NCBI GenBank assembly: GCA_028714455.1 | Contig: JAQTMG010000002.1 | Coordinates: forward strand, 38,047-102,046 | Direction of reading: 5' to 3' | Source of the DNA: Patescibacteria group bacterium | Lineage (GTDB): Bacteria > Patescibacteriota > Patescibacteriia > CAIXNZ01 | DNA length: 64,000 nt | Part shown: in pieces, positions 5,043 to 56,857 of the stretch | Position numbering within the stretch: position 1 is the first letter of the stretch | How the letters are laid out: every line of letters begins with the position of its first letter | The notes under the pieces: model-generated | Databases searched by the model: none | What the model saw: only the letters and a program-made list of their open reading frames with translations | What the model was told of the DNA's origin: nothing | Made by a program: the position numbers and the translations under genes

Positions 5043-5088
5043 TCAAATAGTAAAAAAGTCTGCCGTAAAAGCGGGCTTTTTTATTTAC

Positions 5089-5175
5089 GCCCATTGTCAT
5101 TCCGAATGTAATGAGGAATCTATAACATGTAGTGGATTCTTCGCTCCGCTCTGAATGACGGAGAGGGCAATGGGC
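5089..5175. repeat. palindromic repeat element family A, copy 1 (core GTCATTCCGAATGTAATGAGGAATCT ... GATTCTTCGCTCCGCTCTGAATGAC with variable outer stem GCCCATTG/CAATGGGC)
   Basis: Near-identical cores at 24041-24129 and 48335-48420; long imperfect hairpin. Confidence 0.8.
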
Positions 5176-5183
5176 TTGTCCTG

Positions 5184-5212
5184 TTGACAAAATCATATTT
5201 TTGCCCTATACT
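5184..5212 (+). promoter_or_regulatory. sigma70-like promoter TTGACAAAA-N17-TATACT
   Basis: TTGACA at 5184, TATACT at 5207, spacer 17; upstream of the 63-aa ORF. Confidence 0.55.
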
Positions 5213-5387
5213 GTAAAATCATGAACCTTAAAAATATCTCTTGAAAAAGGACAAGGGATTAGAAATATTGACCTCCGGTTATTGTTATTCCCAAACCCAA
5301 GTCGCCAAAAAAAAGAAGAGGCGAGAAAAGAAAGATGGGGAACGGGAACAATAACTCAAACCGGCATTAATTTGCCAAGGAGGTCTC

Positions 5388-5579
5388 ATGCTGAGATATT
5401 CCAAGCTAAGCAAAGAGGAGCTTAGGGAGTTGAAGGCTAAGTCGATGTCAGAAGAGGATGTAAAGAGAATGCGCAAACTTGATGAAGAGACTAGCTGGAT
5501 CCTTTCTATGCATCAAATCAGTGAAGTACACGGCGAAGAACGAGCGTCCGGTAAAGCGAAGCTAAAACGCAAGAGATAA
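5388..5579 (+). CDS. small highly charged hypothetical protein (63 aa)
   Basis: Strong SD (CCAAGGAGGTCTCATG), own promoter and terminator; ~180 nt structured leader. Confidence 0.45.
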   Translation: MLRYSKLSKEELRELKAKSMSEEDVKRMRKLDEETSWILSMHQISEVHGEERASGKAKLKRKR

Positions 5580-5592
5580 CTTTTGCGCTCAA

Positions 5593-5625
5593 GGCCTGCT
5601 GTAAAAAGCGGGCCTTTTTTATTTG
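5593..5625 (+). terminator. intrinsic terminator hairpin GGCCTGCTGTAAAAAGCGGGCC + T-run
   Basis: Stem-loop followed by TTTTTTATTT; near-identical 30-mer also at 5058-5088 after eno. Confidence 0.6.
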
Positions 5626-5865
5626 TGAAAATAGGAACTGTAGGAACTACAGGAGCTAAGGGTAGAAAAGGGCTATAAGAGCTGTATGAACTAAAGGCCA
5701 AAATGAGCTAAATGTTGATAGGTTAACAGGTCCTTTTGAACCTTTTAACCTATAGTTCCTATTATCATATAGCTCCCTTTTTCTTTTGGTTCCTATAGTT
5801 CCTATTACCCCTATTTCCATATAGTTCTTTTAGCTCATATAATCAAATGGGTTATTTGAAAATAT
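5625..5865. repeat. array of ~9-10 bp TAGGAACTA / TATAGCTCC motifs arranged as a long imperfect palindrome
   Basis: Left arm ATAGGAACTGTAGGAACTACAGGAGCT...; right arm CCTATAGTTCCTAT...GGTTCCTATAGTTCCTAT; central IR GATAGGTTAA/TTAACCTATAG; same motif vocabulary at 58890-58965. Confidence 0.6.
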
Positions 5866-5892
5866 GGGCAATTTGAGGTAAAATAAATACAT

Positions 5893-7464
5893 ATGAATAA
5901 GACAGAAAAAGTAAAAAATCTGCCTTTTGTTTTGGTTATTTTGGACGGCTGGGGTATTGCGCCAGCCAGCCCAAGTAATTCTATTTCCTTGGCTAAAAAG
6001 CCCAACGTGGACTATTTTTTGAAGCACTACCCAAATACGCAGCTCATCGCTTCGGGAGAAAAAGTCGGTCTTAAGAAAAATGAAGATGGAAATTCAGAAG
6101 CTGGGCATATGAATATCGGTGCTGGCAGAATTGTGAAGCAAGATCAGATCATGATTTCGGCAATGATAAAAAATAAAAGTTTCTTCAAAAATCCTGCTTT
6201 ACTTGAAGCGGTTAAGCATGCCCGCAAATTCAAATCAAACATTCATATAATGGGGCTTTTATCAAATGGCGAAAGCGCCCATTCTGATCCGGAACATCTT
6301 TTTGCGCTCCTGGAATTTTTACACAAACAAAAATTTCACAAGATTTATTTGCACATTTTTACTGACGGCCGCGATTCGCCGCCGCATGCGGCTGCGCGCC
6401 TGATGAACAAGCTGATTAATAATTTTAAAAATAGCGAGACCATTTCCACTGTCATGGGCCGATTTTACGCCATGGATCGCATTAAAAAATGGAATAGGAC
6501 AGAAGCAGCTTATAACGCCATGGTCATGGGTGACGGTTTGGTTTCTGATAATCCTTATAAAGCAGTTTCCGAAGCCTATAATCGTGGTGAGACAGATGAA
6601 TTCATTATTCCCACAATAATCAGAAATCCGAAAAAGAACCCGAAATTTATTAGTAATAATGATTCGGTTATATTTTTCAACCTGCGGTCTGATCGAGCGC
6701 GCCAAATCACCAAGCCATTTGTCCAGAAAAATTTTGAGAATGAAAATCCGGGCGCTTTCAAAAGGCATAAAGTTTTAAAAAATCTTAAATTCGTGGCGCT
6801 AACTAATTTCGGGCCAGACCTCGATGATATAAAAAATGTTTATGAGGGCCAGGAACTTGTTAATACTTTACCTTTCGCGCTAAAAGATATTAGGCAGGAA
6901 TACCTGGCCGAGCGCGAAAAATACGCACACGTAACTTACTTTTTTAATGGCGGCCATAATAGGCCTGTTAATGGCGAAATTTGGAGGCAAGTAAAATCAG
7001 AAGGCGCTCAAAATTACGAGACCTTTCCACAGATGTCAATTGTGACTTTGACTGATATAGTTTGCCAGGATGTTAAATCAAATGATTTTGATTTTATTAC
7101 AGTAAATTTTGCCAACGCCGACATGCTTGGTCATACTGGTAATATTGCGGCAGCTATTAAGGCGGTTGAATATATTGACAGTTGCTTGGGAAAAATTTAT
7201 AAAGCTTTAGAGAAAAAGAAAGGCACGCTAATGATTACGGCTGATCATGGCAATGCCGAAGAGATGATGAATATTAAAACACACGAGAAAGATACGGAAC
7301 ATAGTACAAATCCCGTGCCGCTGATAATTATTCATCCAGGTTTAACCAAGAAAAAATTAAAATTAAGAAAAGGTATATTGGGTGATGTGGCGCCAACAAT
7401 TTTGGCGTTGATGGGCCTAAAAGAGCCAAAGGAAATGACCGGGCGATCGCTGATTGTTAGTTGA
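5893..7464 (+). CDS. gpmI: 2,3-bisphosphoglycerate-independent phosphoglycerate mutase
   Basis: VLVILDGWGIAP, GNSEAGHMNIGAGR (catalytic Ser), ITADHGNAEEM. Confidence 0.9.
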   Translation: MNKTEKVKNLPFVLVILDGWGIAPASPSNSISLAKKPNVDYFLKHYPNTQLIASGEKVGLKKNEDGNSEAGHMNIGAGRIVKQDQIMISAMIKNKSFFKNPALLEAVKHARKFKSNIHIMGLLSNGESAHSDPEHLFALLEFLHKQKFHKIYLHIFTDGRDSPPHAAARLMNKLINNFKNSETISTVMGRFYAMDRIKKWNRTEAAYNAMVMGDGLVSDNPYKAVSEAYNRGETDEFIIPTIIRNPKKNPKFISNNDSVIFFNLRSDRARQITKPFVQKNFENENPGAFKRHKVLKNLKFVALTNFGPDLDDIKNVYEGQELVNTLPFALKDIRQEYLAEREKYAHVTYFFNGGHNRPVNGEIWRQVKSEGAQNYETFPQMSIVTLTDIVCQDVKSNDFDFITVNFANADMLGHTGNIAAAIKAVEYIDSCLGKIYKALEKKKGTLMITADHGNAEEMMNIKTHEKDTEHSTNPVPLIIIHPGLTKKKLKLRKGILGDVAPTILALMGLKEPKEMTGRSLIVS

Positions 7465-7541: not shown

Positions 7542-9131
7542 ATGACTAAACTAAAAAATAAACCCGTAGCGCTCTTAATACTTGATGGTTTTGGCATTGC
7601 GCCGCCAGCTCCGGGCAACGCCATTAGCCAGGCCAAAAAACCAAATATTGATAAATACATAGCCACCTATCCTTCAATGGCGCTGGTTGCTTCTGGCGAT
7701 TCGGTCGGTCTTTCCTGGGGGGAGATGGGCACTTCAGAAATCGGTCATCAAAATATAGGTTCAGGCATGATTGTCTATCAGTGGTTGCCCAGAATCAATA
7801 AAGCGATTTCTGACGGCACGTTTTTAAAAAACGAAGCATTTTTAAAAGCCGCGGCGCACGTTAAGAAAAATAAATCAAAGCTGCACCTCTTCGGCTTGGT
7901 CTCATCGGGCGGAGTTCATTCGCACATTGATCATTTATATTCTTTACTGCAATTTGCCAGCCGGCAAAAAATAAATGAAGTTTACATTCACGTGATTCTC
8001 GACGGCCGTGATAGCATTTACAACACGGGCAAAGGTTTTGTTGAAGAACTGTTAAATAAAATTAAAGAATTAAGAGTTAACGCGAAAATCGCCGACATAT
8101 CAGGCCGTTTTTACGCCATGGACCGCGATAATCATTGGGAAAGAACCGAAAAAGCCTTTAACGCCATGGTTAAGGGGGAGAGCGATGAAAAATTTGAAGA
8201 TCCGATTAAAGCCGTAGAGAGTTCTTACAAAAAAAAGGTTTACGATGAAGAATTTGTGCCGGCGGTAATTACAAAAAAAGGCAAACCAGTCGGTTTGATT
8301 GAAGATAAAGACGCCGTGATTTTTTTCAATTTCCGCGCCGATCGAGCCAGACAGATTTCCGAGGCGTTTATACTGCCGGAATTTGATAAATTTCCTCGTC
8401 CTGATTTTTCCAAATTGTTTTTTGTGGGCATGACGCAATACGATAAAGATTTACCACTTGACGCCTTTGCTTTCGCGCCGATTGAAATAAAAAAACCTTT
8501 GGCTAAAATTTTGAGCGACGCGGGTCTGAAGCAGTTGCATATAGCTGAAACAGAAAAATACGCTCACGTGACCTATTTTTTCAATGGCGGCGTGGAAGAG
8601 CCATTTCCTGGCGAGGATCGCATTGTTATTCCTTCGCCGCGCGTGCCCTCTTTTGATCAAAAACCCGAGATGTCCGCTTATAAAGTTACGGACGAAATCG
8701 TGAAAGCTGTTTCAGAAAACAAATATGATTTTATCGTGGCCAATTTTGCCAATACCGATATTGTGGCCCACACCGGTAACCTGAAAGCGACAATTGAGGC
8801 CGCCGAAGTGGTTGATAAATGCGTGGGCAAAATAATAAATTTGATTTTAAGCAAAAACGGCGTTGTTTTTTTGACTGCCGATCACGGCAATGGCGAAGAA
8901 TTACAAAACATCAAAACAGGGGAAATGGATAAGGAACACAGTACTAATCCCGTGCCGTTTATAATCATTGGTCATCAGTGGGAAGGCAAAAACCTTGGCC
9001 TGCCAGACAGCGTAGGCGGCGATTTAAGCTTAGTTACGCCTTCCGGTGTCTTAGCCGATGTAGCGCCCACGATTTTGAAGGTAATGGGCTTTAAACCCTC
9101 GAGTGAAATGACAGGAACGCCATTGATTTAG
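7542..9131 (+). CDS. gpmI: 2,3-bisphosphoglycerate-independent phosphoglycerate mutase, divergent tandem paralog
   Basis: LLILDGFGIAP, GTSEIGHQNIGSG, LTADHGNGEEL; roughly 40% identical by eye to the upstream copy. Confidence 0.88.
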   Translation: MTKLKNKPVALLILDGFGIAPPAPGNAISQAKKPNIDKYIATYPSMALVASGDSVGLSWGEMGTSEIGHQNIGSGMIVYQWLPRINKAISDGTFLKNEAFLKAAAHVKKNKSKLHLFGLVSSGGVHSHIDHLYSLLQFASRQKINEVYIHVILDGRDSIYNTGKGFVEELLNKIKELRVNAKIADISGRFYAMDRDNHWERTEKAFNAMVKGESDEKFEDPIKAVESSYKKKVYDEEFVPAVITKKGKPVGLIEDKDAVIFFNFRADRARQISEAFILPEFDKFPRPDFSKLFFVGMTQYDKDLPLDAFAFAPIEIKKPLAKILSDAGLKQLHIAETEKYAHVTYFFNGGVEEPFPGEDRIVIPSPRVPSFDQKPEMSAYKVTDEIVKAVSENKYDFIVANFANTDIVAHTGNLKATIEAAEVVDKCVGKIINLILSKNGVVFLTADHGNGEELQNIKTGEMDKEHSTNPVPFIIIGHQWEGKNLGLPDSVGGDLSLVTPSGVLADVAPTILKVMGFKPSSEMTGTPLI

Positions 9132-31591: not shown

Positions 31592-31620
31592 TTGACAAAA
31601 AAATATTTTATTGCTAAGTT
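31592..31620 (+). promoter_or_regulatory. conserved promoter TTGACAAAA-N-TAAGTT
   Basis: Spacer 17; drives the 31652 gene. Confidence 0.5.
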
Positions 31621-31651
31621 GAAGTCAAACTTCAAAAAGGAGGAGCTTAAA

Positions 31652-32026
31652 ATGAATGGAGAAGAAGGATTGAAATTGCAATTACTTTGTGCGCTGAAGC
31701 ACATCAGAACTTTAAAAGCGAGAACGGACGATGGGGAATCGTACAAAACTGGCGACATGACTAGAGTGGCTAACACCATCGGAATTGTCGTTGAAGATGT
31801 GGGCCCGAACGAAGATTTCGTGCTTGTTTACATGGCCAAAAAAATTGTCGCGCCCAAAATTTCCGGTTCGGGAACCAATTTTGTCCCGGGAGAAAACGTT
31901 TACTACGATTCGCAGGCGCACAAAGTGACGACTTCGAGCTCGGGCAACGTTCTCTGCGGCAAAGCCCTGGAGTCAGCCAGTGATTCGGCAAGCGAAGTTC
32001 TGATCGAGCTCATCGTGTTTGCGTAG
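31652..32026 (+). CDS. small protein, DUF2190-like (tentative; two-lobed Gly/Val-rich beta pattern)
   Basis: SD AAAAAGGAGGAGCTTAAAATG; GIVVEDVGPNEDFVLV ... SGNVLCGKALESASDSASEVLIEL; higher GC. Confidence 0.4.
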   Translation: MNGEEGLKLQLLCALKHIRTLKARTDDGESYKTGDMTRVANTIGIVVEDVGPNEDFVLVYMAKKIVAPKISGSGTNFVPGENVYYDSQAHKVTTSSSGNVLCGKALESASDSASEVLIELIVFA

Positions 32027-37918: not shown

Positions 37919-38545
37919 ATGAATGTCATCGCCTTCTTGGTTCTGCTTTTGTTCTACGTTCTCATCTTCGCGCGGCTCGAGGCGGAGATTGAGGGAGAAT
38001 TTGGCTGGGCAGCCAAACTGCCGACGGCCAGATATCGCCTGAAAGGCGAGGCGCTCGAATATCGCGCGTTTGCGTCGGCTGACACCAGCTGGGTTGAGAT
38101 TGACAGATCCACGATGCGGGGCAAATTCTTTTCAGCTTATATCGGATTCCTTGGCGGCAAGGATTTTACCTGGTATCACCGAGTCGTCGATCTACTTCAG
38201 CTCTTTGTCGCCCACCTGATTATTTATCTGTGCTTTGGTTCTGAACCCAAGTGGGTCTTGGAAGTCCGCGCCGTGGCCACGCTTTTTCTGATCTGGAGTT
38301 TGGAAGATACGTTCTATTTCTTTGTGAACCCGAGGTTTGGGTTTAAGAAGTACAATCCGGAAAGCATCGGATGGCATAAAGATTGGCTGACCATCGGCGG
38401 AATCAGGATTGGAGACAAAGGCATGATGGGTTTGCTGGCTGGCGGCGCCATCCTATTTGTTCTTTCCCTTTTCCTCCACTGGCTTGTCGTCAACGTCATG
38501 CCGGCCGCCCTGTATATTAATGAGGCGGTGAAAAATATTTTTTGA
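37919..38545 (+). CDS. hypothetical membrane protein (208 aa), high GC
   Basis: SD AAAAGGAGGAAGAAAATG; several TM helices. Confidence 0.45.
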   Translation: MNVIAFLVLLLFYVLIFARLEAEIEGEFGWAAKLPTARYRLKGEALEYRAFASADTSWVEIDRSTMRGKFFSAYIGFLGGKDFTWYHRVVDLLQLFVAHLIIYLCFGSEPKWVLEVRAVATLFLIWSLEDTFYFFVNPRFGFKKYNPESIGWHKDWLTIGGIRIGDKGMMGLLAGGAILFVLSLFLHWLVVNVMPAALYINEAVKNIF

Positions 38546-42645: not shown

Positions 42646-42792
42646 AAGATATGGATAACCACGAAATTTTATTCACGAAAAACACTAAATTTTCGTGAGT
42701 TTTTGTGTAATATTTTCGTGGTTCATCTTTCAGCTATTTTATCTTAACCATTTTAGCAAACTTTGACAAGTAATTAAATGTTTAGAAGTTGT

Positions 42793-42821
42793 TGACAAAA
42801 ATGTGGATTTTGGATAAGCTT
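42793..42821 (+). promoter_or_regulatory. conserved promoter TTGACAAAA-N-TAAGCT
   Basis: Spacer 16-17. Confidence 0.45.
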
Positions 42822-42850
42822 TTTTTATCAATAAAGTATAAGGAGGACAG

Positions 42851-43240
42851 ATGAGTGAATGTCAGAATTTGGCCTTGAATTTAAGCCAGGAAGTGTTACT
42901 CGAGAAGCAAAGAGAGGCAAGGAAGCGACAGGAAAAGGTCGGTAAGCTCTTTGAGAAGGCGACGAAAATTCTGCGTAAGGCCGGATACGATGGCAAAACG
43001 GCGCGGGAATTGGTGTTATTCATCACGAACCTGATTGTTCACCTTGGAATATCCAGAAGCAGTTTTGAAAAGGCTCATTTCAAGTTGAGTGATCAGGGCG
43101 CAACGCGCATGGGAAAAAAAATTATTTTCCAGATACTTGATTTGATCGAGGAAGGGAAAAAAAATGGGAAGCTTCTTGAGAAGCTCGAGGTGGAGATCGA
43201 TGAGCTGAAAGCGGTAATCGAAAAATTAGGGCAGATGTAA
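42851..43240 (+). CDS. hypothetical helical protein (129 aa)
   Basis: SD AAGGAGGACAGATG; terminator at 43229-43257. Confidence 0.4.
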   Translation: MSECQNLALNLSQEVLLEKQREARKRQEKVGKLFEKATKILRKAGYDGKTARELVLFITNLIVHLGISRSSFEKAHFKLSDQGATRMGKKIIFQILDLIEEGKKNGKLLEKLEVEIDELKAVIEKLGQM

Positions 43241-43255: not shown

Positions 43256-43284
43256 TTGACAAAAATGACATTTTTAGATAAGAT
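43256..43284 (+). promoter_or_regulatory. conserved promoter TTGACAAAA-N-TAAGAT
   Basis: Spacer 17; drives purB. Confidence 0.5.
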
Positions 43285-43322
43285 TTTTCTAGCTCTTTTA
43301 AAAAAAGAAAAAAGGAGGAAAG

Positions 43323-44807
43323 ATGATTAAAAGGTATGTTAACAAAAAAATCGAGGAAATCTGGGCACTTGGGAAAAAGTATGAGCTGTGGCTCATGCTT
43401 GAGCTGACTGTTATCAGGATCAGGTGCGCAATGGGTATGTTTCCAAAATATACCCATGAAAAAATTTGTGACGCCTTAGGTGAGATTGAATTTGGTGACA
43501 AGCAAATCGCCGAAATTGCAGAGATTGAGAAAAAGACAAAGCATGACCTCAATGCTTTTATCGAGTGGATAAAAGCACGTCTGCCCGTTGATCTTCGCAT
43601 GTACATACATTGGAAGATGACATCATATGATACTGAAGAAGCGCCGTTTAGCCTGATGCTGCTCGAATCCTTTGATCTTGTAATTCAGCAATGTGATCAT
43701 CTTTGCGACGTGCTTCATGAAATGGTCTATAAATACCGCTATGTGCCCATGCTTGGACGCACGCACGGTCAGGAAGCCAAACTCCAGTCCTTTGGTCTGC
43801 GCGCTCTGCGCTGGTACCTTGCGCTGGATGAAGCACGACAGCAGCTTCTTGATTCGCAGAAAGAAATTAAGCTTTCAAAGCTAAGCGGTGCGATCGGCAA
43901 CTACCAGGGGATCACTCCAGAAGAAGAGGACGCAGTGCTGCGTTCGCTCGGACTCAAGCCTTTTGTTGGCGCATCACAGATTATGCCTCGTATTTTGCAC
44001 CAACCTCTTGTCAATGCCTTGCTTATGATCGTGGGCAGTTTGACTCAGATTGCCGAAGATATCAGAATCGCGGCGCGCAGCGGACTGCCGCTCATGCAGG
44101 AATTTTTTGACAAGGGCCAGATGGGATCATCGGCCATGCCCCACAAAAAAAATACCATCACCTGTGAAAATCAAATCGGCACGTGGCGCATGGCCAAAGG
44201 CTATGGCAATATGCTAAGAGATTGCATGTTAACTTGGGAAGAGCGTGCTATTGAGCAATCCTGTGTCGAGCGTGTTGCCTGGCCAGATCTTTTCCATGTA
44301 GTTATGCAGTCTTTCAAAAACATGGCAAGCGTGCTCGAACGCCTGCAGGTTTTCCCAGATCATATGATGCTGGAAATCGACAACTCGCACGGCTGCTATG
44401 CCTCGGAAGAAGCAAAAGAGCTGCTCAAGGAATTTGGCCTGATCGATGAGGCTTACAAAATTGTGCAGCTCGCCGCGGCCAATGTCCATGAGCATGGCCA
44501 GGTTCTGAGCGATTACAGAAAGCAGCTGCAGGCCAGTTCGGTCGAAGGATATCCGGATATCGATGATGCTGTGCTGCTCGGCAAGCATTACCGAAGTGAA
44601 GAAGTCGACTCGATCAATCGAGTGATCTCGCAGGGCGATCTGCGCCCCGCAGAGGCGCTTGGGCACAGCGAAGAGACAGTCAGCGCCTGGAATAAAAAAC
44701 TCAAGGAAATCTTTGCTGACCCGAAAAAGCTGGAAAAGTGGAACGAGGTTTTTACCATCACCTTCCAGCTGCGTAACGAATCATTTATTTTTGAAACGCA
44801 CAAGTAA
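43323..44807 (+). CDS. purB: adenylosuccinate lyase
   Basis: N-terminal RY...IW...KYELWLMLE; fumarate-lyase signature GSSAMPHKKN; GC ~50%. Confidence 0.85.
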   Translation: MIKRYVNKKIEEIWALGKKYELWLMLELTVIRIRCAMGMFPKYTHEKICDALGEIEFGDKQIAEIAEIEKKTKHDLNAFIEWIKARLPVDLRMYIHWKMTSYDTEEAPFSLMLLESFDLVIQQCDHLCDVLHEMVYKYRYVPMLGRTHGQEAKLQSFGLRALRWYLALDEARQQLLDSQKEIKLSKLSGAIGNYQGITPEEEDAVLRSLGLKPFVGASQIMPRILHQPLVNALLMIVGSLTQIAEDIRIAARSGLPLMQEFFDKGQMGSSAMPHKKNTITCENQIGTWRMAKGYGNMLRDCMLTWEERAIEQSCVERVAWPDLFHVVMQSFKNMASVLERLQVFPDHMMLEIDNSHGCYASEEAKELLKEFGLIDEAYKIVQLAAANVHEHGQVLSDYRKQLQASSVEGYPDIDDAVLLGKHYRSEEVDSINRVISQGDLRPAEALGHSEETVSAWNKKLKEIFADPKKLEKWNEVFTITFQLRNESFIFETHK

Positions 44808-44819
44808 AAAATAAGCCCC

Positions 44820-44855
44820 CGTACCAAGTGGTAGGGGGCTTTTTAGTTTGTTCAG
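44820..44855. terminator. bidirectional hairpin AGCCCCCGTACCAAGTGGTAGGGGGCT + T-run
   Basis: Between convergent purB and purH. Confidence 0.7.
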
Positions 44856-46627
44856 TGTTTGGCAAAACCGCGGTTGATTTTGTCGACAAAGATGACTGAA
44901 AGTCCTGTCTGGCCAAAGAGCTCGATGACTTTGGGAAGTTCTTTCCCGTCAGCCACCACCACTCCGCCTTTGCAGCCCGCGTCAATCAGCAGCTCCGTGC
45001 CTTCGCGGTTGTCATATTTGGCAATAAAGAGGCTCAAACCTCCCAGCGTAGCCAATACTCCTTTCGGTTTGCCAACTTTCTGACAATAGTATGCGTATTC
45101 GATGAATTCCCCGTCTGCATTATCAATGAAATCAGACATATCTTCCAGGTTTGGTTCCGGGCTGCTTGCGTATGGGAAAAACGCATCAGAGGCAAACATG
45201 GAACCGTCCGTGTCATGTCCTGCTCGGGTCGCTCTTTCCAGGCAGAGGCGCACGCAAGTGATTCTATCCTGTTGGCCGCAACCGAGCGCGATGAGCGCGC
45301 TGTCCTTGGCCAGGGCTACGGTGTTGGAACTCGCGTTCCAACAGATTGCCCAGGCGATGAGCAGGTTTTCGAGGTCAGCAGCTTCGACGGCTGGTCCGAC
45401 AGATGTCTCGTATGAATCCATGGTTAGGACGTAAGGATAGACTCTCTGGCGCAGGAACCCGCCACGTACCGGCTTATACATCCAGGCGTCGTTCGGCAGA
45501 GTCGGGTTGATCAAGGCCGGGTTGGAAAGTAGGCGCCTTTTTTTGGCTTTCATGAGTTCGCAGGTGTTTGCGGAAAATTCAGGCGCGATGATCAGGTCAA
45601 GACCCCAACGCTCGCGGCCGAGATTGAAATCGGCCGGCGGCTTGTGCAGGGCCTTGCCGAGTTCGTCACTGATAGGGAAGTTGGTGATGACCTCGCCGCC
45701 CATGACAGCGACTTTGTCGCCGATGAGCGCTTTGAAAATGGCTCGTGCCGGATCATGCCAGTCGATGGCCGCACCACATGGGTTGCCGTGTTTGCCGGCA
45801 ATGACGATGTAGGGCACTTTGCCGAAATTCCGGCGAAATGCCTCGACCAACACGCACATAATCTGGAGTACGCCGTTGCCGTCGGCCATGGCAATGTAGC
45901 TGGGATCACCGACCTCGACTTTGAATTTGTCCAGAGCCAGCGGATCGTCATTGCCAAAGGAAAAAAGCGTGGCCGGATTTTGGCATTTGTTCTCGCCATA
46001 GGCCAGATCGAGCGCTTTTTTGCCCACATTTCCGTCGATATCACCGTCGCTGTGATAGCGCGCCGAATCCAGGCAATATTTGGCGACTTCGCCTTCTGCC
46101 TTGGCGCGCAGGCGCTGAATGCTTTCGGGCTTGAGTTCGTTGTTGTTGGCCCGAAGTTCGTCCAGCACCCAGCCTCTGTCCGCCGGGTCGCAGATGACGA
46201 TGCGACCGCCTTTGGCAGCCGAACGCACCATGGTCGGCCCGCCGATGTCAGTCATCTCAATGACCGATTCAATGGTTGCATCTGGCTTGGCGATGGCGTT
46301 AGCCAGCGGATAAAAATCGCAGCAGACCAGATCGATGTAGGGCAGCCCGAGATTTTCCATTTCTTCCAGGTCAATATTATAACGTGCCAGCAGACTGGCA
46401 TGGAGTTCTCGCGAGAGCGTGACCACACGGTGACCCAGGATTGCTTTGCCACCGACTAATTCGGCCACATCAGTGACTTTGAGACCAGCTTCTTTTAGAA
46501 CCTTGGCCGTGCCGCCCGAAGAAAGAATTCTCCAGCCCATTATGCTTAGATCTTGGGCAAACCCCTTAATTCCGGCTTTGTTGAAAACCGAGATCAAAGC
46601 AAACTTATCTCCTTTTTCAAAAATCAT
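44852..46627 (-). CDS. purH: bifunctional AICAR transformylase / IMP cyclohydrolase
   Basis: N-terminal MGS-like ALISVFNKAGI...LSSGGTAK...GHRVVTLS; 591 aa; high GC. Confidence 0.85.
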   Translation of the reverse strand: MIFEKGDKFALISVFNKAGIKGFAQDLSIMGWRILSSGGTAKVLKEAGLKVTDVAELVGGKAILGHRVVTLSRELHASLLARYNIDLEEMENLGLPYIDLVCCDFYPLANAIAKPDATIESVIEMTDIGGPTMVRSAAKGGRIVICDPADRGWVLDELRANNNELKPESIQRLRAKAEGEVAKYCLDSARYHSDGDIDGNVGKKALDLAYGENKCQNPATLFSFGNDDPLALDKFKVEVGDPSYIAMADGNGVLQIMCVLVEAFRRNFGKVPYIVIAGKHGNPCGAAIDWHDPARAIFKALIGDKVAVMGGEVITNFPISDELGKALHKPPADFNLGRERWGLDLIIAPEFSANTCELMKAKKRRLLSNPALINPTLPNDAWMYKPVRGGFLRQRVYPYVLTMDSYETSVGPAVEAADLENLLIAWAICWNASSNTVALAKDSALIALGCGQQDRITCVRLCLERATRAGHDTDGSMFASDAFFPYASSPEPNLEDMSDFIDNADGEFIEYAYYCQKVGKPKGVLATLGGLSLFIAKYDNREGTELLIDAGCKGGVVVADGKELPKVIELFGQTGLSVIFVDKINRGFAKH

Positions 46628-46755
46628 TGTCCCTCCTTTTGGTTTTGATTTAGTTTTCCAAACACTTTATATTTTAACTTTAGTTTTTAGCTAAAGATTG
46701 TAAAGAACCGATGGCTGTACCTTAAACAAAATTTTGATAAATGTCAATGTTTATA

Positions 46756-46784
46756 TTGACAAAACACATTAGAGTTGGTAAGGT
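46756..46784 (+). promoter_or_regulatory. conserved promoter TTGACAAAA-N-TAAGGT
   Basis: Spacer 17. Confidence 0.5.
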
Positions 46785-46831
46785 CATTTCAGATTTTGTT
46801 CTATAAAAAAAGGAAAAAAGGAGGAAAAAGA

Positions 46832-48289
46832 ATGGCAAAGATCCCAAAGGGGCTTGAGTCCCCGGAATTCGGTGGTCTAAAATTGATTTCAGACGGTAAG
46901 GTCAGGGGCACGTATGTTTTTAAGGATCAACATCCAAGCCCTTTAGTGCAATTGGCGACTGACCGCATTAGCATTTTTAATTTCATCCTCAACGCCAAAG
47001 TGCCACAAAAGGGAGAGATTCTGACGGCTATGACTATTTTCTGGCTGGAAAAGGTGCTGAAAAATTTCAAATCGCATCTTGATTTTTTTGGATCGTCTTG
47101 CGGAATTATGCTGCCTGTCGGCGCATATCGTGAGGATCCCGACTTGTGGAAAAGGGTCTTGATAATCCAAAATTTGATTCTGCCGCCGATTGAGGCCATT
47201 GTCCGCGGTTATTTGACCGGCTCTGGCTGGAAATCGTACCAAAAGTCAGGTGAATGCTACGGCCACAAGTTGCCCGAGGGACTCTGGGATGGAGCTAAAT
47301 TGCCATTTCCCATTTTTACGCCCACGGAAAAATCCGAGGACGATGCGCCAATCAGCCATGAAGAAGTGGTCAAGCGGTTTGGCGGCACCATGGAAAGAGT
47401 GTCCATGCAGGCCTACTGGCAGGCATTGGACTTCGCCATTTCGCGTGGCATTATCCTGGCCGATACTAAATTCGAGATGACCAACGATGGCATCATCGGC
47501 GATGAGGTAATCACACCTGATTCCAGCCGCTTCTGGGATTTGAAGGAGTGGCAGAAACTCGTCGCGGAAAAGAAATCGCCGACCTCATTGGACAAAGAGT
47601 TTGTCCGGAAGTGGGGCAAGAGCGTGGGCATTCATGAGCTTGATCCCAAAAGCCTGGAACACATCGCTCGGGTGGAATCAATCCTTGTACCCACGGACGT
47701 CATTGAGAACACCAGGCGCATCTATCGCTACATTTTCTGGCGCTTGACTGGCAAAAAATTGGAAGTCTTCCAGAGCGAAGTGATGAACATTCCCGACGTC
47801 AGTATGCCCAGGGTCAAGATCGCTATCGTCATCGGCAGCCAATCAGATCTTCTTCAGTGCCAACCAGGCAGGGATTTTCTGCTCGGCCAAATGCAGAGGG
47901 GAAATTGCAACGTTGATTTCAATATCATCAGCTGCCACAGAAATCCAAAAGAGCTGCTCGGCTTTGTTCAAGAAGAGTCGACACCAGATGTTGTTATCGC
48001 CGGAGCTGGCATGGCCGCGGCTTTACCCGGTATCTTAAAATCTCTGTACGTCTCTGGAGGAAAGGCTGTGCCAGTCATCGGTGTAGCCTTTGAAGGCAAG
48101 AATAATGCCGAAACATTGGCAGCCCAACTCTCAATCGAAAAGCTGCCCGGCAGTCCAGTAATTCTCGGTCCGGATGGAGTATTTACCGGAGGGGAAGGAT
48201 TTATGGCTGCTTGCAAGTACGCGCTGGAAAGTGAATTTCAGCCCGAGGCGCCGAAAGAACAGAAGAAGGCATGCCTTCACATGAAATAA
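46832..48289 (+). CDS. purCE: PAICS-like bifunctional SAICAR synthetase (N-terminal PurC) / N5-CAIR mutase-type PurE (C-terminal) fusion
   Basis: N-terminal GKVRGTY...TDRISIFNF...PQKGEIL (PurC); C-terminal KIAIVIGSQSDL...SCHRNP...AGMAAALPG (PurE); start at MAKIPKG after AAAGGAGGAAAAAGAATG. Confidence 0.8.
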   Translation: MAKIPKGLESPEFGGLKLISDGKVRGTYVFKDQHPSPLVQLATDRISIFNFILNAKVPQKGEILTAMTIFWLEKVLKNFKSHLDFFGSSCGIMLPVGAYREDPDLWKRVLIIQNLILPPIEAIVRGYLTGSGWKSYQKSGECYGHKLPEGLWDGAKLPFPIFTPTEKSEDDAPISHEEVVKRFGGTMERVSMQAYWQALDFAISRGIILADTKFEMTNDGIIGDEVITPDSSRFWDLKEWQKLVAEKKSPTSLDKEFVRKWGKSVGIHELDPKSLEHIARVESILVPTDVIENTRRIYRYIFWRLTGKKLEVFQSEVMNIPDVSMPRVKIAIVIGSQSDLLQCQPGRDFLLGQMQRGNCNVDFNIISCHRNPKELLGFVQEESTPDVVIAGAGMAAALPGILKSLYVSGGKAVPVIGVAFEGKNNAETLAAQLSIEKLPGSPVILGPDGVFTGGEGFMAACKYALESEFQPEAPKEQKKACLHMK

Positions 48290-48297
48290 AGAATCTT

Positions 48298-48333
48298 AAA
48301 ACGGCGATCATCTGGTCGCCGTTTTTTCTTTTT
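48298..48333 (+). terminator. hairpin AAACGGCGATCATCTGGTCGCCGTTT + T-run
   Basis: Perfect 8-bp stem. Confidence 0.7.
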
Positions 48334-48334
48334 G

Positions 48335-48420
48335 CGCGCTCCGTCATTCCGAATGTGATGAGGAATCTATTACTCCAAAAAGTCATAGATCCTTCGCTTC
48401 GCTCTGGATGACGGAGCGCG
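48335..48420. repeat. palindromic repeat element family A, copy 3 (outer stem GCGCGCTCC/GGAGCGCG)
   Basis: Core GTCATTCCGAATGTGATGAGGAATCT...GATCCTTCGCTTCGCTCTGGATGAC. Confidence 0.8.
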
Positions 48421-54110: not shown

Positions 54111-54686
54111 TTAAAGTTTGGGAAGCTGTTTTGGCACTGGTTCGCCAATTTGGGCCCAGATCCGTTCCTCTGCTTCTAGCGCGAGAGGCGTTAAACTCGC
54201 CGGAGCATGTTTCACTGCCCCGCGAATCTGCCTTGCGTTTCCCGCTGCCGCTGCCAGCTCGATGAACTTTTTCCAGTAGATTTCGGGAGTGGACAGCATG
54301 TAAAGAGAGTCGTCAAGCTTTTCCATGCTCGGCGCTCTCTTGACGCACTCATCCGCCGCCCGGCGCCTTTTCTCCGCCGCTTTAAAATAATCGTGTTCGG
54401 GGACGTCCTGTCCCGGCAGCATTTGAACCAGCCAATGCCAGAATTCAAATCCAAGATCCGGTTCTTCGTAGTTTTCGAGCAGGGAAAGACATTTTTGCCT
54501 GGCCATAAACTGCATTTTGTCGGTTACGTAATGGCGCTTTGTTTGCTCGTACGCCCAGCGCGCTTCGAGCGGAGTGGTCGCGGCATTGATGCACGCCCAC
54601 AGAGCATTGATATAGGTCGCCTCGAGCTGCAATTTTCTTTCCTCCAGGTTAAGAATCTCTTGCTTCAGCTCATCGAAATTCGACAT
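54111..54686 (-). CDS. hypothetical protein (191 aa), high GC
   Basis: SD AAAAGGAGGATAAAAATG; minus-strand conserved promoter TTGACAAAAC-N-TAAGTT at 54725-54753. Confidence 0.45.
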   Translation of the reverse strand: MSNFDELKQEILNLEERKLQLEATYINALWACINAATTPLEARWAYEQTKRHYVTDKMQFMARQKCLSLLENYEEPDLGFEFWHWLVQMLPGQDVPEHDYFKAAEKRRRAADECVKRAPSMEKLDDSLYMLSTPEIYWKKFIELAAAAGNARQIRGAVKHAPASLTPLALEAEERIWAQIGEPVPKQLPKL

Positions 54687-54749: not shown

Positions 54750-55550
54750 TCAACCGCGCGCCATTTTATAGACGTTGGCCAGCAGCATGGCGATGGTCAT
54801 GGGTCCGACGCCGCCGGGGACAGGGGAACGATAGGCGACAACCTTATCAACTTCCGGATCAACGTCACCCACGGTTTTACCAGCGATTTTATTAATGCCA
54901 ACATCGATGATTGTCGAATTTTTCTTGACCATGTCGGTTTTGATAGATTTTGGTTTGCCTACGGCGACGATGAGAATATCGGCACTTGAGCTCTGAGCTT
55001 TGAGCTCTGAGCTCGAAGCTTTGGGCGAAAGGTAAGAAACATTACATTCGCGCATTAACGGTTTAAACGGTTCAGCGAATTTTTCAGAGTTTGATAAAAT
55101 CACAACTTTTTTATTTTTCAAATTTTCACCAGTACTTTTAATCAGTTCAATAATGCCCGAAACCGTCGGTGAAATAATTTTTGACTGCGGTTGAAAGCCA
55201 TCCACGTCTTTTTCCGGCGAAATCCTGGCTATTATTTTATCAGTGTCAAAGTTTTTGGGCAGAGGCAGCTGAATCAAGATGCCGGTAATCTGCTCATCCT
55301 TATTTAAAAAATCAATGACTTCAAATATTTTTTCTTCGCCGCAATCCTCTGACAAAAAATAACTGGAAAATTCAATGCCAACCTCAAGGCAGGCTTTGGC
55401 TTTTAATTTTATATAAAGTTCAGATGAGGGATCATTGCCAATTAAAATAGAAGCCAGAGCTGGTTTTTTGTCCATTTGAATTATTTTGCCGCGAAGTTCT
55501 AATTTAATTTTTTCGGCCAGAATTTTGCCGTCAATGAGTTTGGCTGACAT
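54750..55550 (-). CDS. folD: bifunctional methylenetetrahydrofolate dehydrogenase / methenyl-THF cyclohydrolase
   Basis: AKLIDGKILAEKIK...; GVGPMTIAML; start at the internal MSAKL; contains an in-frame heptamer-repeat insertion (54988-55026) encoding ...KASSSELKAQSSSAD... Confidence 0.88.
   Translation of the reverse strand: MSAKLIDGKILAEKIKLELRGKIIQMDKKPALASILIGNDPSSELYIKLKAKACLEVGIEFSSYFLSEDCGEEKIFEVIDFLNKDEQITGILIQLPLPKNFDTDKIIARISPEKDVDGFQPQSKIISPTVSGIIELIKSTGENLKNKKVVILSNSEKFAEPFKPLMRECNVSYLSPKASSSELKAQSSSADILIVAVGKPKSIKTDMVKKNSTIIDVGINKIAGKTVGDVDPEVDKVVAYRSPVPGGVGPMTIAMLLANVYKMARG
54988..55026. repeat. heptamer GAGCTCN tandem repeat inside the folD coding sequence
   Basis: GAGCTCT GAGCTTT GAGCTCT GAGCTCG AAGCTTT GGGC. 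Confidence 0.65.
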
Positions 55551-55551
55551 A

Positions 55552-55607
55552 GGGCTTTTGGCTTTGGGCTCTGGGCAAAAAGCTCTATGCTCTATGCTCG
55601 TGGCCCA
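55552..55607. repeat. heptamer GGGCTNT tandem repeat array (8 units) in the glyA-folD spacer
   Basis: GGGCTTT TGGCTTT GGGCTCT GGGCAAA AAGCTCT ATGCTCT ATGCTCG TGGCCCA. Confidence 0.65.
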
Positions 55608-55612
55608 TGGCA

Positions 55613-56857
55613 TTAATATTTTAAATCCTTATAGATAGGGAATTGGTGCGTGAGTTGTGCCACCTGTTTTTTGGCTTTTTCCTGAATTATCGCATCTTCA
55701 TGATTTTTTAGAAGTTCAGAGATTAAATTTCCGATTATCTTCATCTCTTTTTCTTTCATGCCTCGCGTGGTCAGAGCTGGCGTGCCCAGGCGCAGACCAG
55801 AGGGGTCGGCGGCTTTTCTCGCGTCAAAAGGAATCAGATTTTTATTAGTGTAAATGCCGACTCGAGCCAGAATTTCCTCGGCCTGCTGTCCGCCAAGACG
55901 CAGATTTGTCAGTTTTAGCAAAATCAGATGCGTGTCTGTGCCGCCCGAAACAAGTTCAAAGCCGTTATTAATCAGAGTGGCGGCCAAAACACTGGCATTT
56001 TTTATGACCTGCTGTTGATATTTTTTAAAGGTCGGTTTCATGGCCTCCGCAAAACAAACGGCTTTAGCCGCGATAATATTTTCCAGCGGACCGCCCTGAA
56101 TACCAGGAAAAACGGCCTTGTCTATTTTTTCAGCCAAATATTTTTTGCACAAGATAAATCCGCCGCGCGGACCGGCCAGCGTTTTGTGCGTGGTGCTGGT
56201 AATAACATCGGCGTAGGGAATAGGATCGGGATGAAGTTTGGCCACGACCAGTCCGGCAAAATGCGCCATGTCAACCATTAATTTGGCGTTGACCGCGTCA
56301 GCTATTTTTTTAAATTTTTCAAAATCAATCTGGCGCGCGTAAGCGGAACCGCCGGCGATGATCAGCTTTGGCGCCTCGCGCTGGGCGATTTCCAAAACAT
56401 TACCATAGTTTATTTCTTCGGTGTTTTTATCAACGCCATAAAAAGCAACTTTGTAGATTTTGCCTGAAAAATTTAAATGCGAGCCGTGGGAAAGATGGCC
56501 GCCTTGCGCCAGATTCATGGCCAAAATCTTGTCGCCTGGATTTAAGAGCGCCAGATAAACCGCCATATTGGCCTGACTGCCAGAATGCGGCTGAACATTG
56601 ACATGCTCGGCGCCAAAAAGTTTTTTGGCTCGTTCGATAGCCAAACTCTCGGCTTCATCAATGAATTGATTGCCGCTGTAATATCTTTTGCCGATTTGTC
56701 CCTCTGAATATTTATTCATCAAAACACTGCCGCTCGCTTCTAAAACCGCTTGCGAGGCGTAGTTTTCAGAGGCGATCATTTCCAGCCCGTCTTTTTGGCG
56801 AGCCAGCTCTTTTTGAACCGCGGCGTAAACCTGTTTGTCTGTTTTTAGATATTTCAT
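55613..56857 (-). CDS. glyA: serine hydroxymethyltransferase
   Basis: [14 protein letters not shown] (PLP lysine region); 414 aa. Confidence 0.95.

Follow-up and report, generated by a model that had tools for sequence, protein, structure and literature searches.

A PurC-PurE fusion within a probable resident purine gene cluster of a Patescibacteria chromosome

How does a member of the Patescibacteria, most of which lack de novo nucleotide synthesis and depend on hosts (bioRxiv 10.64898/2026.06.21.733656), come to carry a compact set of purine synthesis genes, and what may these genes accomplish? The question is raised by a 64-kb stretch of contig JAQTMG010000002.1 from a Patescibacteria group bacterium (this whole stretch is called the window), in which purB, purH and a gene fusing purC to purE lie side by side. 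A first-pass annotation had described the three genes as a laterally acquired island of high guanine-plus-cytosine (GC) content with a fusion like that of animal PAICS. In this study, the region is interpreted as a probable resident piece of a Patescibacteria (Parcubacteria-type) chromosome, encoding the later half of the de novo purine pathway, which runs from 5-aminoimidazole ribonucleotide (AIR) to inosine monophosphate (IMP).

Gene products and the fusion family

The open reading frames (ORFs) of purB, purH and purC-purE are all intact, fill positions 43323-48289 and retain their catalytic motifs (Table 1). The gene identities and coordinates first proposed were borne out by matches to Pfam, NCBIfam and the Protein Data Bank (PDB), and the span assigned to the three genes, AIR to IMP, was correct; the label of purine salvage was not supported, for Pfam domain scans found no purine salvage gene near the cluster. 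PurB matched Pfam Lyase_1 (1.8e-32), and its best PDB match was the adenylosuccinate lyase of T. maritima (1C3U, 235 bits). Compared with 1C3U, it retains the histidines of TKHD and GRTHG and the signature GSSAMPHKKN; the fumarase/aspartase-superfamily signature SSxMPxKxN and the catalytic histidines are present. Its last ~100 residues are divergent, and the ADSL_C domain was not detected there by Pfam. PurB enzymes convert phosphoribosylaminoimidazole-succinocarboxamide (SAICAR) to aminoimidazole carboxamide ribonucleotide (AICAR), and also adenylosuccinate to AMP. PurH contains both the MGS (IMP cyclohydrolase) and AICARFT_IMPCHas domains of Pfam, with C. jejuni PurH as its best PDB match (4EHI, 172 bits). 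The motifs SVxxK, SGGT, DIGGP, KHGNPCG and SDAFFP are kept, and an insertion follows DAFFPY; the two domains and the catalytic Lys-His of KHGNPCG together mark a bifunctional PurH.

In the third ORF, the proposed order of an N-terminal PurC and a C-terminal PurE was confirmed by the Pfam domains, and the two parts are joined by a linker of ~14 residues. Translation is assigned to the ATG at 46832, which has AGGAGG upstream and agrees with homologues that begin MAxIP; the TTG at 46775 given by the mechanical ORF list was rejected, as it would place the -10 box (46779-46784) inside the ORF. Antisense ORFs within purH and purB (e.g. 45644-46459, plus strand) were taken as by-products of high GC. 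The fusion exactly matches a GenBank protein encoded on a 188,654-bp contig of a 'Patescibacteria group bacterium' metagenome-assembled genome (MAG), the MAG that holds protein MDD5341094.1. Its PurC half matched Pfam SAICAR_synt (8e-44) and, as a single sequence, yeast Ade1 (1A48, 154 bits); the ATP-grasp-like motifs expected of a SAICAR synthetase are present, and GKVR, DTKFE, TPDSSRFW and DKxxVR are invariant in 38 of 38 aligned fusion members. The AlphaFold model has both domains well folded (predicted local distance difference test, pLDDT, 93.4; predicted template modelling score, pTM, 0.92). In Foldseek searches, the PurC half of the model matched yeast and mycobacterial PurC with target-normalised template modelling (TM) scores of 0.80-0.85 (2CNQ, 0.85). 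At 33-34% identity to these enzymes, it keeps all ATP and carboxyaminoimidazole ribonucleotide (CAIR) binding motifs; unlike them, the fusion is not single-domain and has a PurE after the last PurC helix.

Relatives of the fusion were sought among 5.8 billion proteins, and the best 120 matches were examined for both Pfam domains. All 120 have the two-domain architecture, with 44-62% identity to the window fusion and lengths of 483-526 aa (one shorter entry has 422 aa), and every named relative among them is a member of the Patescibacteria, Parcubacteria or Buchananbacteria. At least 120 clusters at 90% identity contain both domains, as do ~45 full-length clusters at 50% identity, beyond which single-domain PurCs follow; the earlier statement that this fusion order is rare in bacteria is not supported. 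Scans of genome and metagenome collections, in which most matches were Firmicutes PurE and generic PurC, yielded Patescibacteria loci in both (at least six and at least four, respectively).

The likeness to animal PAICS holds for the domain order. Both are single chains in which a C-terminal PurE follows an N-terminal SAICAR synthetase, assigned to two consecutive steps, and Foldseek aligned them over ~480 columns. However, the identity is 16% and the root-mean-square deviation (rmsd) over both halves is 14 Å, and the domain packing therefore differs. The window PurC half is of the long yeast/mycobacterial type, and the PurE half carries SCHR and AAALPG where class II enzymes have SAHK and SNGLGP. 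The class II signature is absent from the family, 38 of 38 members having SCHRNP and an AGMAAALPG-type loop, and PAICS similarity across both domains was not found. Against the PDB, the family profile scored 247 bits with yeast Ade1, 233 with mycobacterial PurC and 53-73 with class I PurEs; the values were 36 for B. mori PAICS, 33.5 for human PAICS and 12 (E = 0.47) for the class II PurE of T. denticola. The fusion family is large and Patescibacteria-wide, and it arose independently of animal PAICS.

A different fusion was found in the complete Berkelbacteria genome CP011213.1 (locus L175; 13256-14584, 442 aa). It matches B. mori PAICS (155 bits) and human PAICS (139 bits) over both domains and carries the class II motifs SGHK and GMSNGLGP, which mark it as a true PAICS type, a protein unrelated to the window fusion.

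The PurE half, PurK and the supply of AIR

The PurE half matched Pfam AIRC with 3e-15 and 56 bits, covering profile positions 1-104 of 148. Its PDB matches at E <= 0.01 were all microbial PurE/N5-CAIR (N5-carboxyaminoimidazole ribonucleotide) mutases (34 of 34), a set from which PAICS and the class II enzyme of T. denticola were both absent, and the modelled domain superposes on A. aceti and S. aureus PurE at an rmsd of ~2.2 Å with 30% identity. As in class I enzymes (E. coli, S. aureus, A. aceti), it has the GSxSD loop (here GSQSD), a 40s loop with the catalytic His-Arg pair, and the motifs LPG, PVIGV and SI..LP. In the 40s loop SCHRNP, all 38 aligned fusion members have C368, and 90% or more of them have H369 and R370; arginine after the catalytic histidine is characteristic of class I, whereas lysine occupies this position in human PAICS (PMC10484210). 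Unlike class I PurEs, the window PurE is fused to PurC, has cysteine in place of alanine before the catalytic histidine, shows a 5-6 residue insertion after the 70s loop and a divergent C-terminal third, and has no purK nearby. The 70s loop itself also differs: it reads AGGAAHLPG in the class I PurEs of the PDB alignments and AGAGMAAALPG in the window, and its family form, AGAG(M/K/L/W)AA(A/Q/R)LPG, has mostly alanine, in a few members glutamine or arginine, and histidine in none of 38 at the class I histidine position. Classification from the motif around SCHRNP, as first suggested, thus gives a class-I-like PurE that lacks the class I 70s-loop histidine. By its sequence and modelled fold, the domain lies on the class I side and seems to be class-I-derived, and it fits neither textbook class fully.

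The closest profile belongs to stand-alone PurEs that also lack this histidine. In hhalign comparisons, the PurE region of the family scored 135 with the histidine-less Veillonellaceae PurE (45% identity), 106 with E. coli class I PurE and 19 with the class II type domain. Such PurEs of gut Firmicutes (Veillonellaceae, Lachnospiraceae, Erysipelotrichaceae) share the loop AG(M/L)AAALPG and the lack of an adjoining purK. They differ from the window domain in being stand-alone proteins of ~165 aa with SAHR, whose genes open full pur operons and precede purC (E-then-C). No PurK was found within 10 kb in any of 99 loci with such PurEs among the matches listed (L052, L079, L070-L083, L097-L172), loci which had been selected by the loop motif itself; in many of them, PurE heads a purE-purC-(purF)-purM-purN-purH-purD-purL operon. 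The AAALPG loop of the Firmicutes and fusion PurEs may reflect common descent, or it may be convergent.

PurK was likewise not found in the 64-kb window or in 20 Patescibacteria loci, with a query sensitive enough to detect PurT, a 25%-identical E. coli paralogue. The literature already considers class-I-like PurE without PurK in anaerobic archaea, and in E. coli either high CO2 or an excess of PurE rescues purK mutants (PMC3261824; PMC10912719). Because PurK was not found in these loci, purK-less operons carry the same loop, the closest profile is that of their PurEs and there are published precedents, the fusion PurE probably makes CAIR without PurK. A further step is tentative and rather doubtful: the histidine-less, class-I-derived PurE could be a third functional kind of PurE, which forms CAIR from AIR and CO2 or bicarbonate with neither PurK nor ATP. 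This kind may be PurC-fused across the Patescibacteria and, in gut Firmicutes, be a stand-alone protein whose gene opens operons that lack purK.

An AIR source within the window had been reported missing, and this was confirmed: tblastn with E. coli and Veillonellaceae queries for PurF, PurD, PurN, PurT, PurL, PurM and PurK found nothing in the 64 kb. In relatives, upstream genes were found near the purine genes. In a Patescibacteria locus with the order purH-purB-purCE (L173), the C-terminus of PurM lies at the locus edge, 10 kb away, in a fragment that matches TIGR00878 only; in the Berkelbacteria genome, purF directly follows the purine genes, its product being 42% identical to Veillonellaceae PurF. 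According to published surveys, 32% of 399 MAGs of the candidate phyla radiation (CPR) have complete IMP modules (PMC11608272), and ~7% of the Patescibacteria genomes of high quality encode nucleotide synthesis de novo (bioRxiv 10.64898/2026.06.21.733656). Thus, the first-pass remark that reduced-genome lineages usually lack the pathway is right for most Patescibacteria, but 7-32% of genomes are reported to have it. A literature search on CPR with pur gene names found nothing gene-specific. Given purM and purF near the purine genes in relatives, together with these surveys, a complete pathway elsewhere in the genome is the likeliest source of AIR. The cofactor of PurH, 10-formyl-tetrahydrofolate (10-formyl-THF), is likely supplied by folD and glyA, which lie 6 kb from the cluster in the window and whose linkage to the purine genes is kept in three related loci (L084, L086 and L007).

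Locus context, composition and expression signals

The order recR-ybaB-dnaB-purB-purH-purCE-pcrA-macro...folD-glyA is common to the window and two other Patescibacteria loci, L084 and L086, whose fusions are 52% and 62% identical to that of the window. Among the three, DnaB is 81-82% identical, RecR 70-78%, PcrA 72-74%, PurH 54-64%, PurCE 52-62%, FolD 56-62% and serine hydroxymethyltransferase (SHMT, encoded by glyA) 59%. Metabolic enzymes of this clade, SHMT and FolD (56-62%), are in general far more diverged than replication proteins such as DnaB. In distant relatives, the fusion gene stands alone or adjoins guaA or purB, in varied orientations. The cluster is not missing from the same site in these syntenic relatives; Pfam domain scans found no integrase or transposase adjoining it, the window contains no tRNA, and no direct repeats flank it (only short, chance-like repeats were seen). 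On the grounds of synteny in L084 and L086, the use of house promoters and a house ribosome-binding site and the lack of mobility marks, the purine cluster appears to be a resident part of the chromosome and not a recent import. As the insertion point and order are the same in three genomes whose flanks are 70-82% identical, any acquisition predates their split; an ancient transfer into the common ancestor is conceivable.

The GC excess of the three genes is modest. The window has 41.3% GC, not the ~35% first assumed as background, with a gene mean of 41.3% (standard deviation, sd, 6.0) and a mean GC at third codon positions (GC3) of 0.44 (sd 0.094). The ~50% GC first given for the trio is close to the values of purB, purH and the fusion (48.1, 54.1 and 49.7%; GC3 0.545, 0.618 and 0.576), but these lie only 1.1 to 2.1 sd above the window gene mean. 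When each protein was recoded with the window-average codon choice, the predicted GC was 43.9, 47.7 and 45.8%, respectively, which attributes +2.6 to +6.4 points of the excess to amino-acid composition and +4.1 to +6.5 points to codon choice (z 1.4-2.2). Roughly half of the excess is therefore due to amino-acid composition. An unrelated three-gene run in the window reaches a GC3 of 0.553, and the single genes at 37919-38545 and 54111-54686 are equally extreme. Ribosomal proteins L10 and L7/L12, enolase and phosphoglycerate kinase (PGK) have an ordinary GC3 of 0.43-0.47, so that high expression does not account for the excess. The purine orthologues of AT-rich relatives are also richer in GC than their neighbours (z 1.1-2.4 in L084, 0.8-1.4 in L086 and 1.3-2.1 in L173), and the fusion gene is not GC-elevated in a relative of 59% GC. 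The somewhat higher GC thus seems to be a trait shared with the orthologues of other AT-rich relatives rather than a sign of recent import.

The Berkelbacteria locus is of another kind. Its purH-purB-fusion trio has a GC3 of 0.52-0.59 against 0.315 (sd 0.039) in its neighbours (z 5-7), whereas the adjoining purF is native-like (GC3 0.35), and a syntenic relative (L176) has purF and lacks the trio at that site. This trio is a genuine compositional insertion, and the window cluster is unlike it; the Berkelbacteria case gives some support to lateral movement of purine genes within the phylum. The idea of one three-gene cassette moving among CPR bacteria was rejected, since the Berkelbacteria set matches that of the window in PurH family only, its PurB and fusion being of other types. 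PurH of the Patescibacteria type was also seen in Aenigmatarchaeota CP070801.1 (L174, 10001-11686), 48% identical to that of the window and encoded among archaeal-type genes, and a second Aenigmarchaeota match was P0189; this suggests a PurH subfamily shared across domains between DPANN archaea and Patescibacteria.

A conserved promoter had been proposed before each gene, and all three do have one, but the purH copy reads TTGACATTT and not TTGACAAAA. The latter occurs 12 times in the 64-kb window against 2.1 expected. In the window, 10 TTGACA sites are followed 16-17 nt on by TAAG(T/G/A)T or a near variant, those of purB, purCE and purH included; this house-type promoter (TTGACA-17-TAAGxT) is also found at the folD-glyA operon (54753, minus strand) and at other genes. 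The leaders of purB (43294-43321) and purCE (46800-46827) are 89% identical over 28 nt, both ending AAAAAAGGAGGAAA. No riboswitch or other Rfam family matched the region at gathering or relaxed thresholds, and the 84-nt purH leader is unstructured, shuffled sequences folding at least as well; riboswitch or leader control was rejected on these two results. Between the convergent purB and purH, the sequence reads as a hairpin that is likely to be a bidirectional terminator for both genes. Rfam gives only a weak terminator-like sRNA match for it, and the terminator scan did not list it, probably because its loop is too long for the scan rule.

Table 1. Positions of the purine genes, their expression signals and the folate genes in the window
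Feature	Position	Strand	Description
purB promoter	43256-43284	+	TTGACA, 17-nt spacer, TAAGAT; 10 of 12 consensus matches
purB	43323-44807	+	Adenylosuccinate lyase, 494 aa; C-terminus longer and divergent
Hairpin between purB and purH	44810-44846	.	G+C-rich, GCCCCC...GGGGGC, flanked by an A-run and a T-run
purH	44852-46627	-	AICAR transformylase/IMP cyclohydrolase, 591 aa; lineage-specific insertions
purH promoter	46719-46747	-	TTGACA, 17-nt spacer, TAAGGT; divergent from the purC-purE promoter
purC-purE promoter	46756-46784	+	TTGACA(AAA), 17-nt spacer, TAAGGT
purC-purE fusion, whole ORF	46832-48289	+	SAICAR_synt at aa 19-265, then AIRC at aa 329-440 (Pfam)
Fusion, PurC part	46832-47770	+	aa 1-~313; long yeast/mycobacterial-type SAICAR synthetase
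Fusion, PurE part	47813-48289	+	aa 328-485 and stop codon; class-I-like PurE
Intrinsic terminator 3' of purC-purE	48298-48325	+	12-bp stem, then T-run
folD and glyA	54750-56857	-	FolD at 54750-55613 (methylene-THF dehydrogenase/cyclohydrolase), SHMT at 55613-56857 (Pfam)

The window also encodes pgk, eno, two cofactor-independent phosphoglycerate mutases, fpg, mltG, rsmH, tgt, a ClpB-like ATPase, recR, dnaB, pcrA, a LigD phosphoesterase, a macro-domain protein, folD, glyA and murC. The two mutase genes stand in tandem (5893-7464 and 7542-9131) downstream of pgk and eno, with an 850-nt non-coding gap (5043-5892) before them. Between the purCE terminator and pcrA lies an imperfect palindrome with 40-nt arms (48335-48420), which as RNA would fold at -47 kcal/mol (z = -8.2) and whose 3' arm spans the pcrA start codon at 48408; the window has no second full copy, although positions 5153-5166 match in part. 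Over 36 nt, the purB promoter region (43256-43291) shares 81% identity with the promoter (42792-42827) of a small unknown ORF (42851-43240). The first nine bases of another small ORF, 31592-32026, match TTGACAAAA; its product has a Pfam Phage_cement_2 match (4e-10).

Alternative explanations and significance

Three other explanations were weighed against a resident AIR-to-IMP half of the pathway. It is unlikely that the genes form a laterally acquired island that imported a partial pathway, although GC and GC3 lie 1-2 sd above those of other genes, the purine genes diverge more than their flanks, the PurB type differs between syntenic relatives, the Berkelbacteria trio offers an example of insertion with GC3 5-7 sd above its neighbours and absence from L176, and, according to a preprint, genes for nucleotide synthesis are phylogenetically scattered within the phylum (bioRxiv 10.64898/2026.06.21.733656). 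Against the island, which the first-pass annotation had favoured, stand the identical insertion point and order in three genomes with flanks 70-82% identical, the house promoters and ribosome-binding site, the failure to find mobility genes, a tRNA or flanking repeats, a modest GC excess that is about half a matter of amino-acid composition and is equalled by other native genes, and close homologues that are all Patescibacteria. It is also improbable that the genome holds the AIR-to-IMP half only, fed by AIR, AICAR or ribosides from a host or the environment, with purB doubling for AMP synthesis. Such a truncated pathway would suit the general host dependence of the Patescibacteria, the lack of an upstream pur gene in the window and, in most Patescibacteria loci, within 10 kb of the fusion, and the recurrence of purB, purH and purCE together in several arrangements. 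However, purM and purF lie close to the purine genes in two lineages, no riboside kinase or dedicated transporter adjoins the cluster, and pur genes are scattered in such genomes, so that their absence from 64 kb says little. AIR is labile and is not known to be exchanged as a metabolite, which also counts against this explanation.

Least credible, and very improbable in our view, is a PurE half that has lost its catalytic role and acts for PurC only as a scaffold of oligomerisation. In its favour, no member has the class I 70s-loop histidine, and the Pfam match is weak (56 bits) and restricted to profile positions 1-104 of 148. Yet 38 diverged sequences show full or nearly full conservation of the histidine and arginine of SCHR, of GSxSD (the phosphate loop) and of LPG/PVIG, the modelled domain superposes on class I PurE at 2.2 Å, and stand-alone PurEs with the same loop occupy the purE position in complete pur operons. 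Several observations do weigh against a resident second half of purine synthesis that works without PurK. None of the three proteins reaches its NCBIfam equivalog cutoff (PurB, TIGR00928, 297.8 bits against 326.2; PurH, NF002049, 280 against 402; the PurC half of the fusion, NF010568, 235 against 251, just under). The trio is the top three-gene GC3 run in the window (0.580), and the purine proteins are more diverged among relatives than the flanking replication proteins. In the dnaB-pcrA slot, the window PurB is 50% identical to that of L084 and only 30% identical to that of L086 (3936-5291), which is of a type that bears ADSL_C; because the flanking DnaB and PcrA are 72-82% identical, purB appears to have been replaced in place at least once, in one lineage. 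As to the pathway, the presence of purF, purD, purN, purL and purM and the absence of purK in this genome are presumed, the sequence examined being the 64-kb window; the detection of PurT is the sole in-sample positive control for the absence of PurK, and the motif-based choice of the 99 PurE loci also tempers their weight.

In the resident AIR-to-IMP pathway that we regard as probable, AIR would be supplied by purF, purD, purN, purL and purM located elsewhere in the genome. The PurE domain would form CAIR, and the attached PurC domain would turn CAIR into SAICAR. CAIR would be formed without PurK, either from AIR and CO2 directly or via N5-CAIR arising spontaneously in bicarbonate-rich water. 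PurB would then yield AICAR, and PurH, drawing 10-formyl-THF from the folD/glyA products, would yield formyl-AICAR (FAICAR) and then IMP.

In sum, the Patescibacteria include a minority in which the AIR-to-IMP steps are retained and clustered, and the slight GC richness of purine genes in a reduced genome need not mean import. The PurC-PurE architecture arose at least twice within the phylum, as the window type and as the Berkelbacteria PAICS type. Public annotation of the window fusion and of most named relatives gives 'SAICAR synthase' only, and thus omits the second activity. If the PurE half does represent a third functional kind, the direct-carboxylase activity known from the class II enzymes of animals would have had a second origin within the class I lineage, and Patescibacteria would have welded such a PurE to PurC, handing over its labile product. 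The choice of PurE/PurK as an antibacterial target rests on its presumed difference from the human enzyme; possible PurK-independent PurEs bear on the generality of that difference, and these PurE variants also bear on the evolution of AIR carboxylation.

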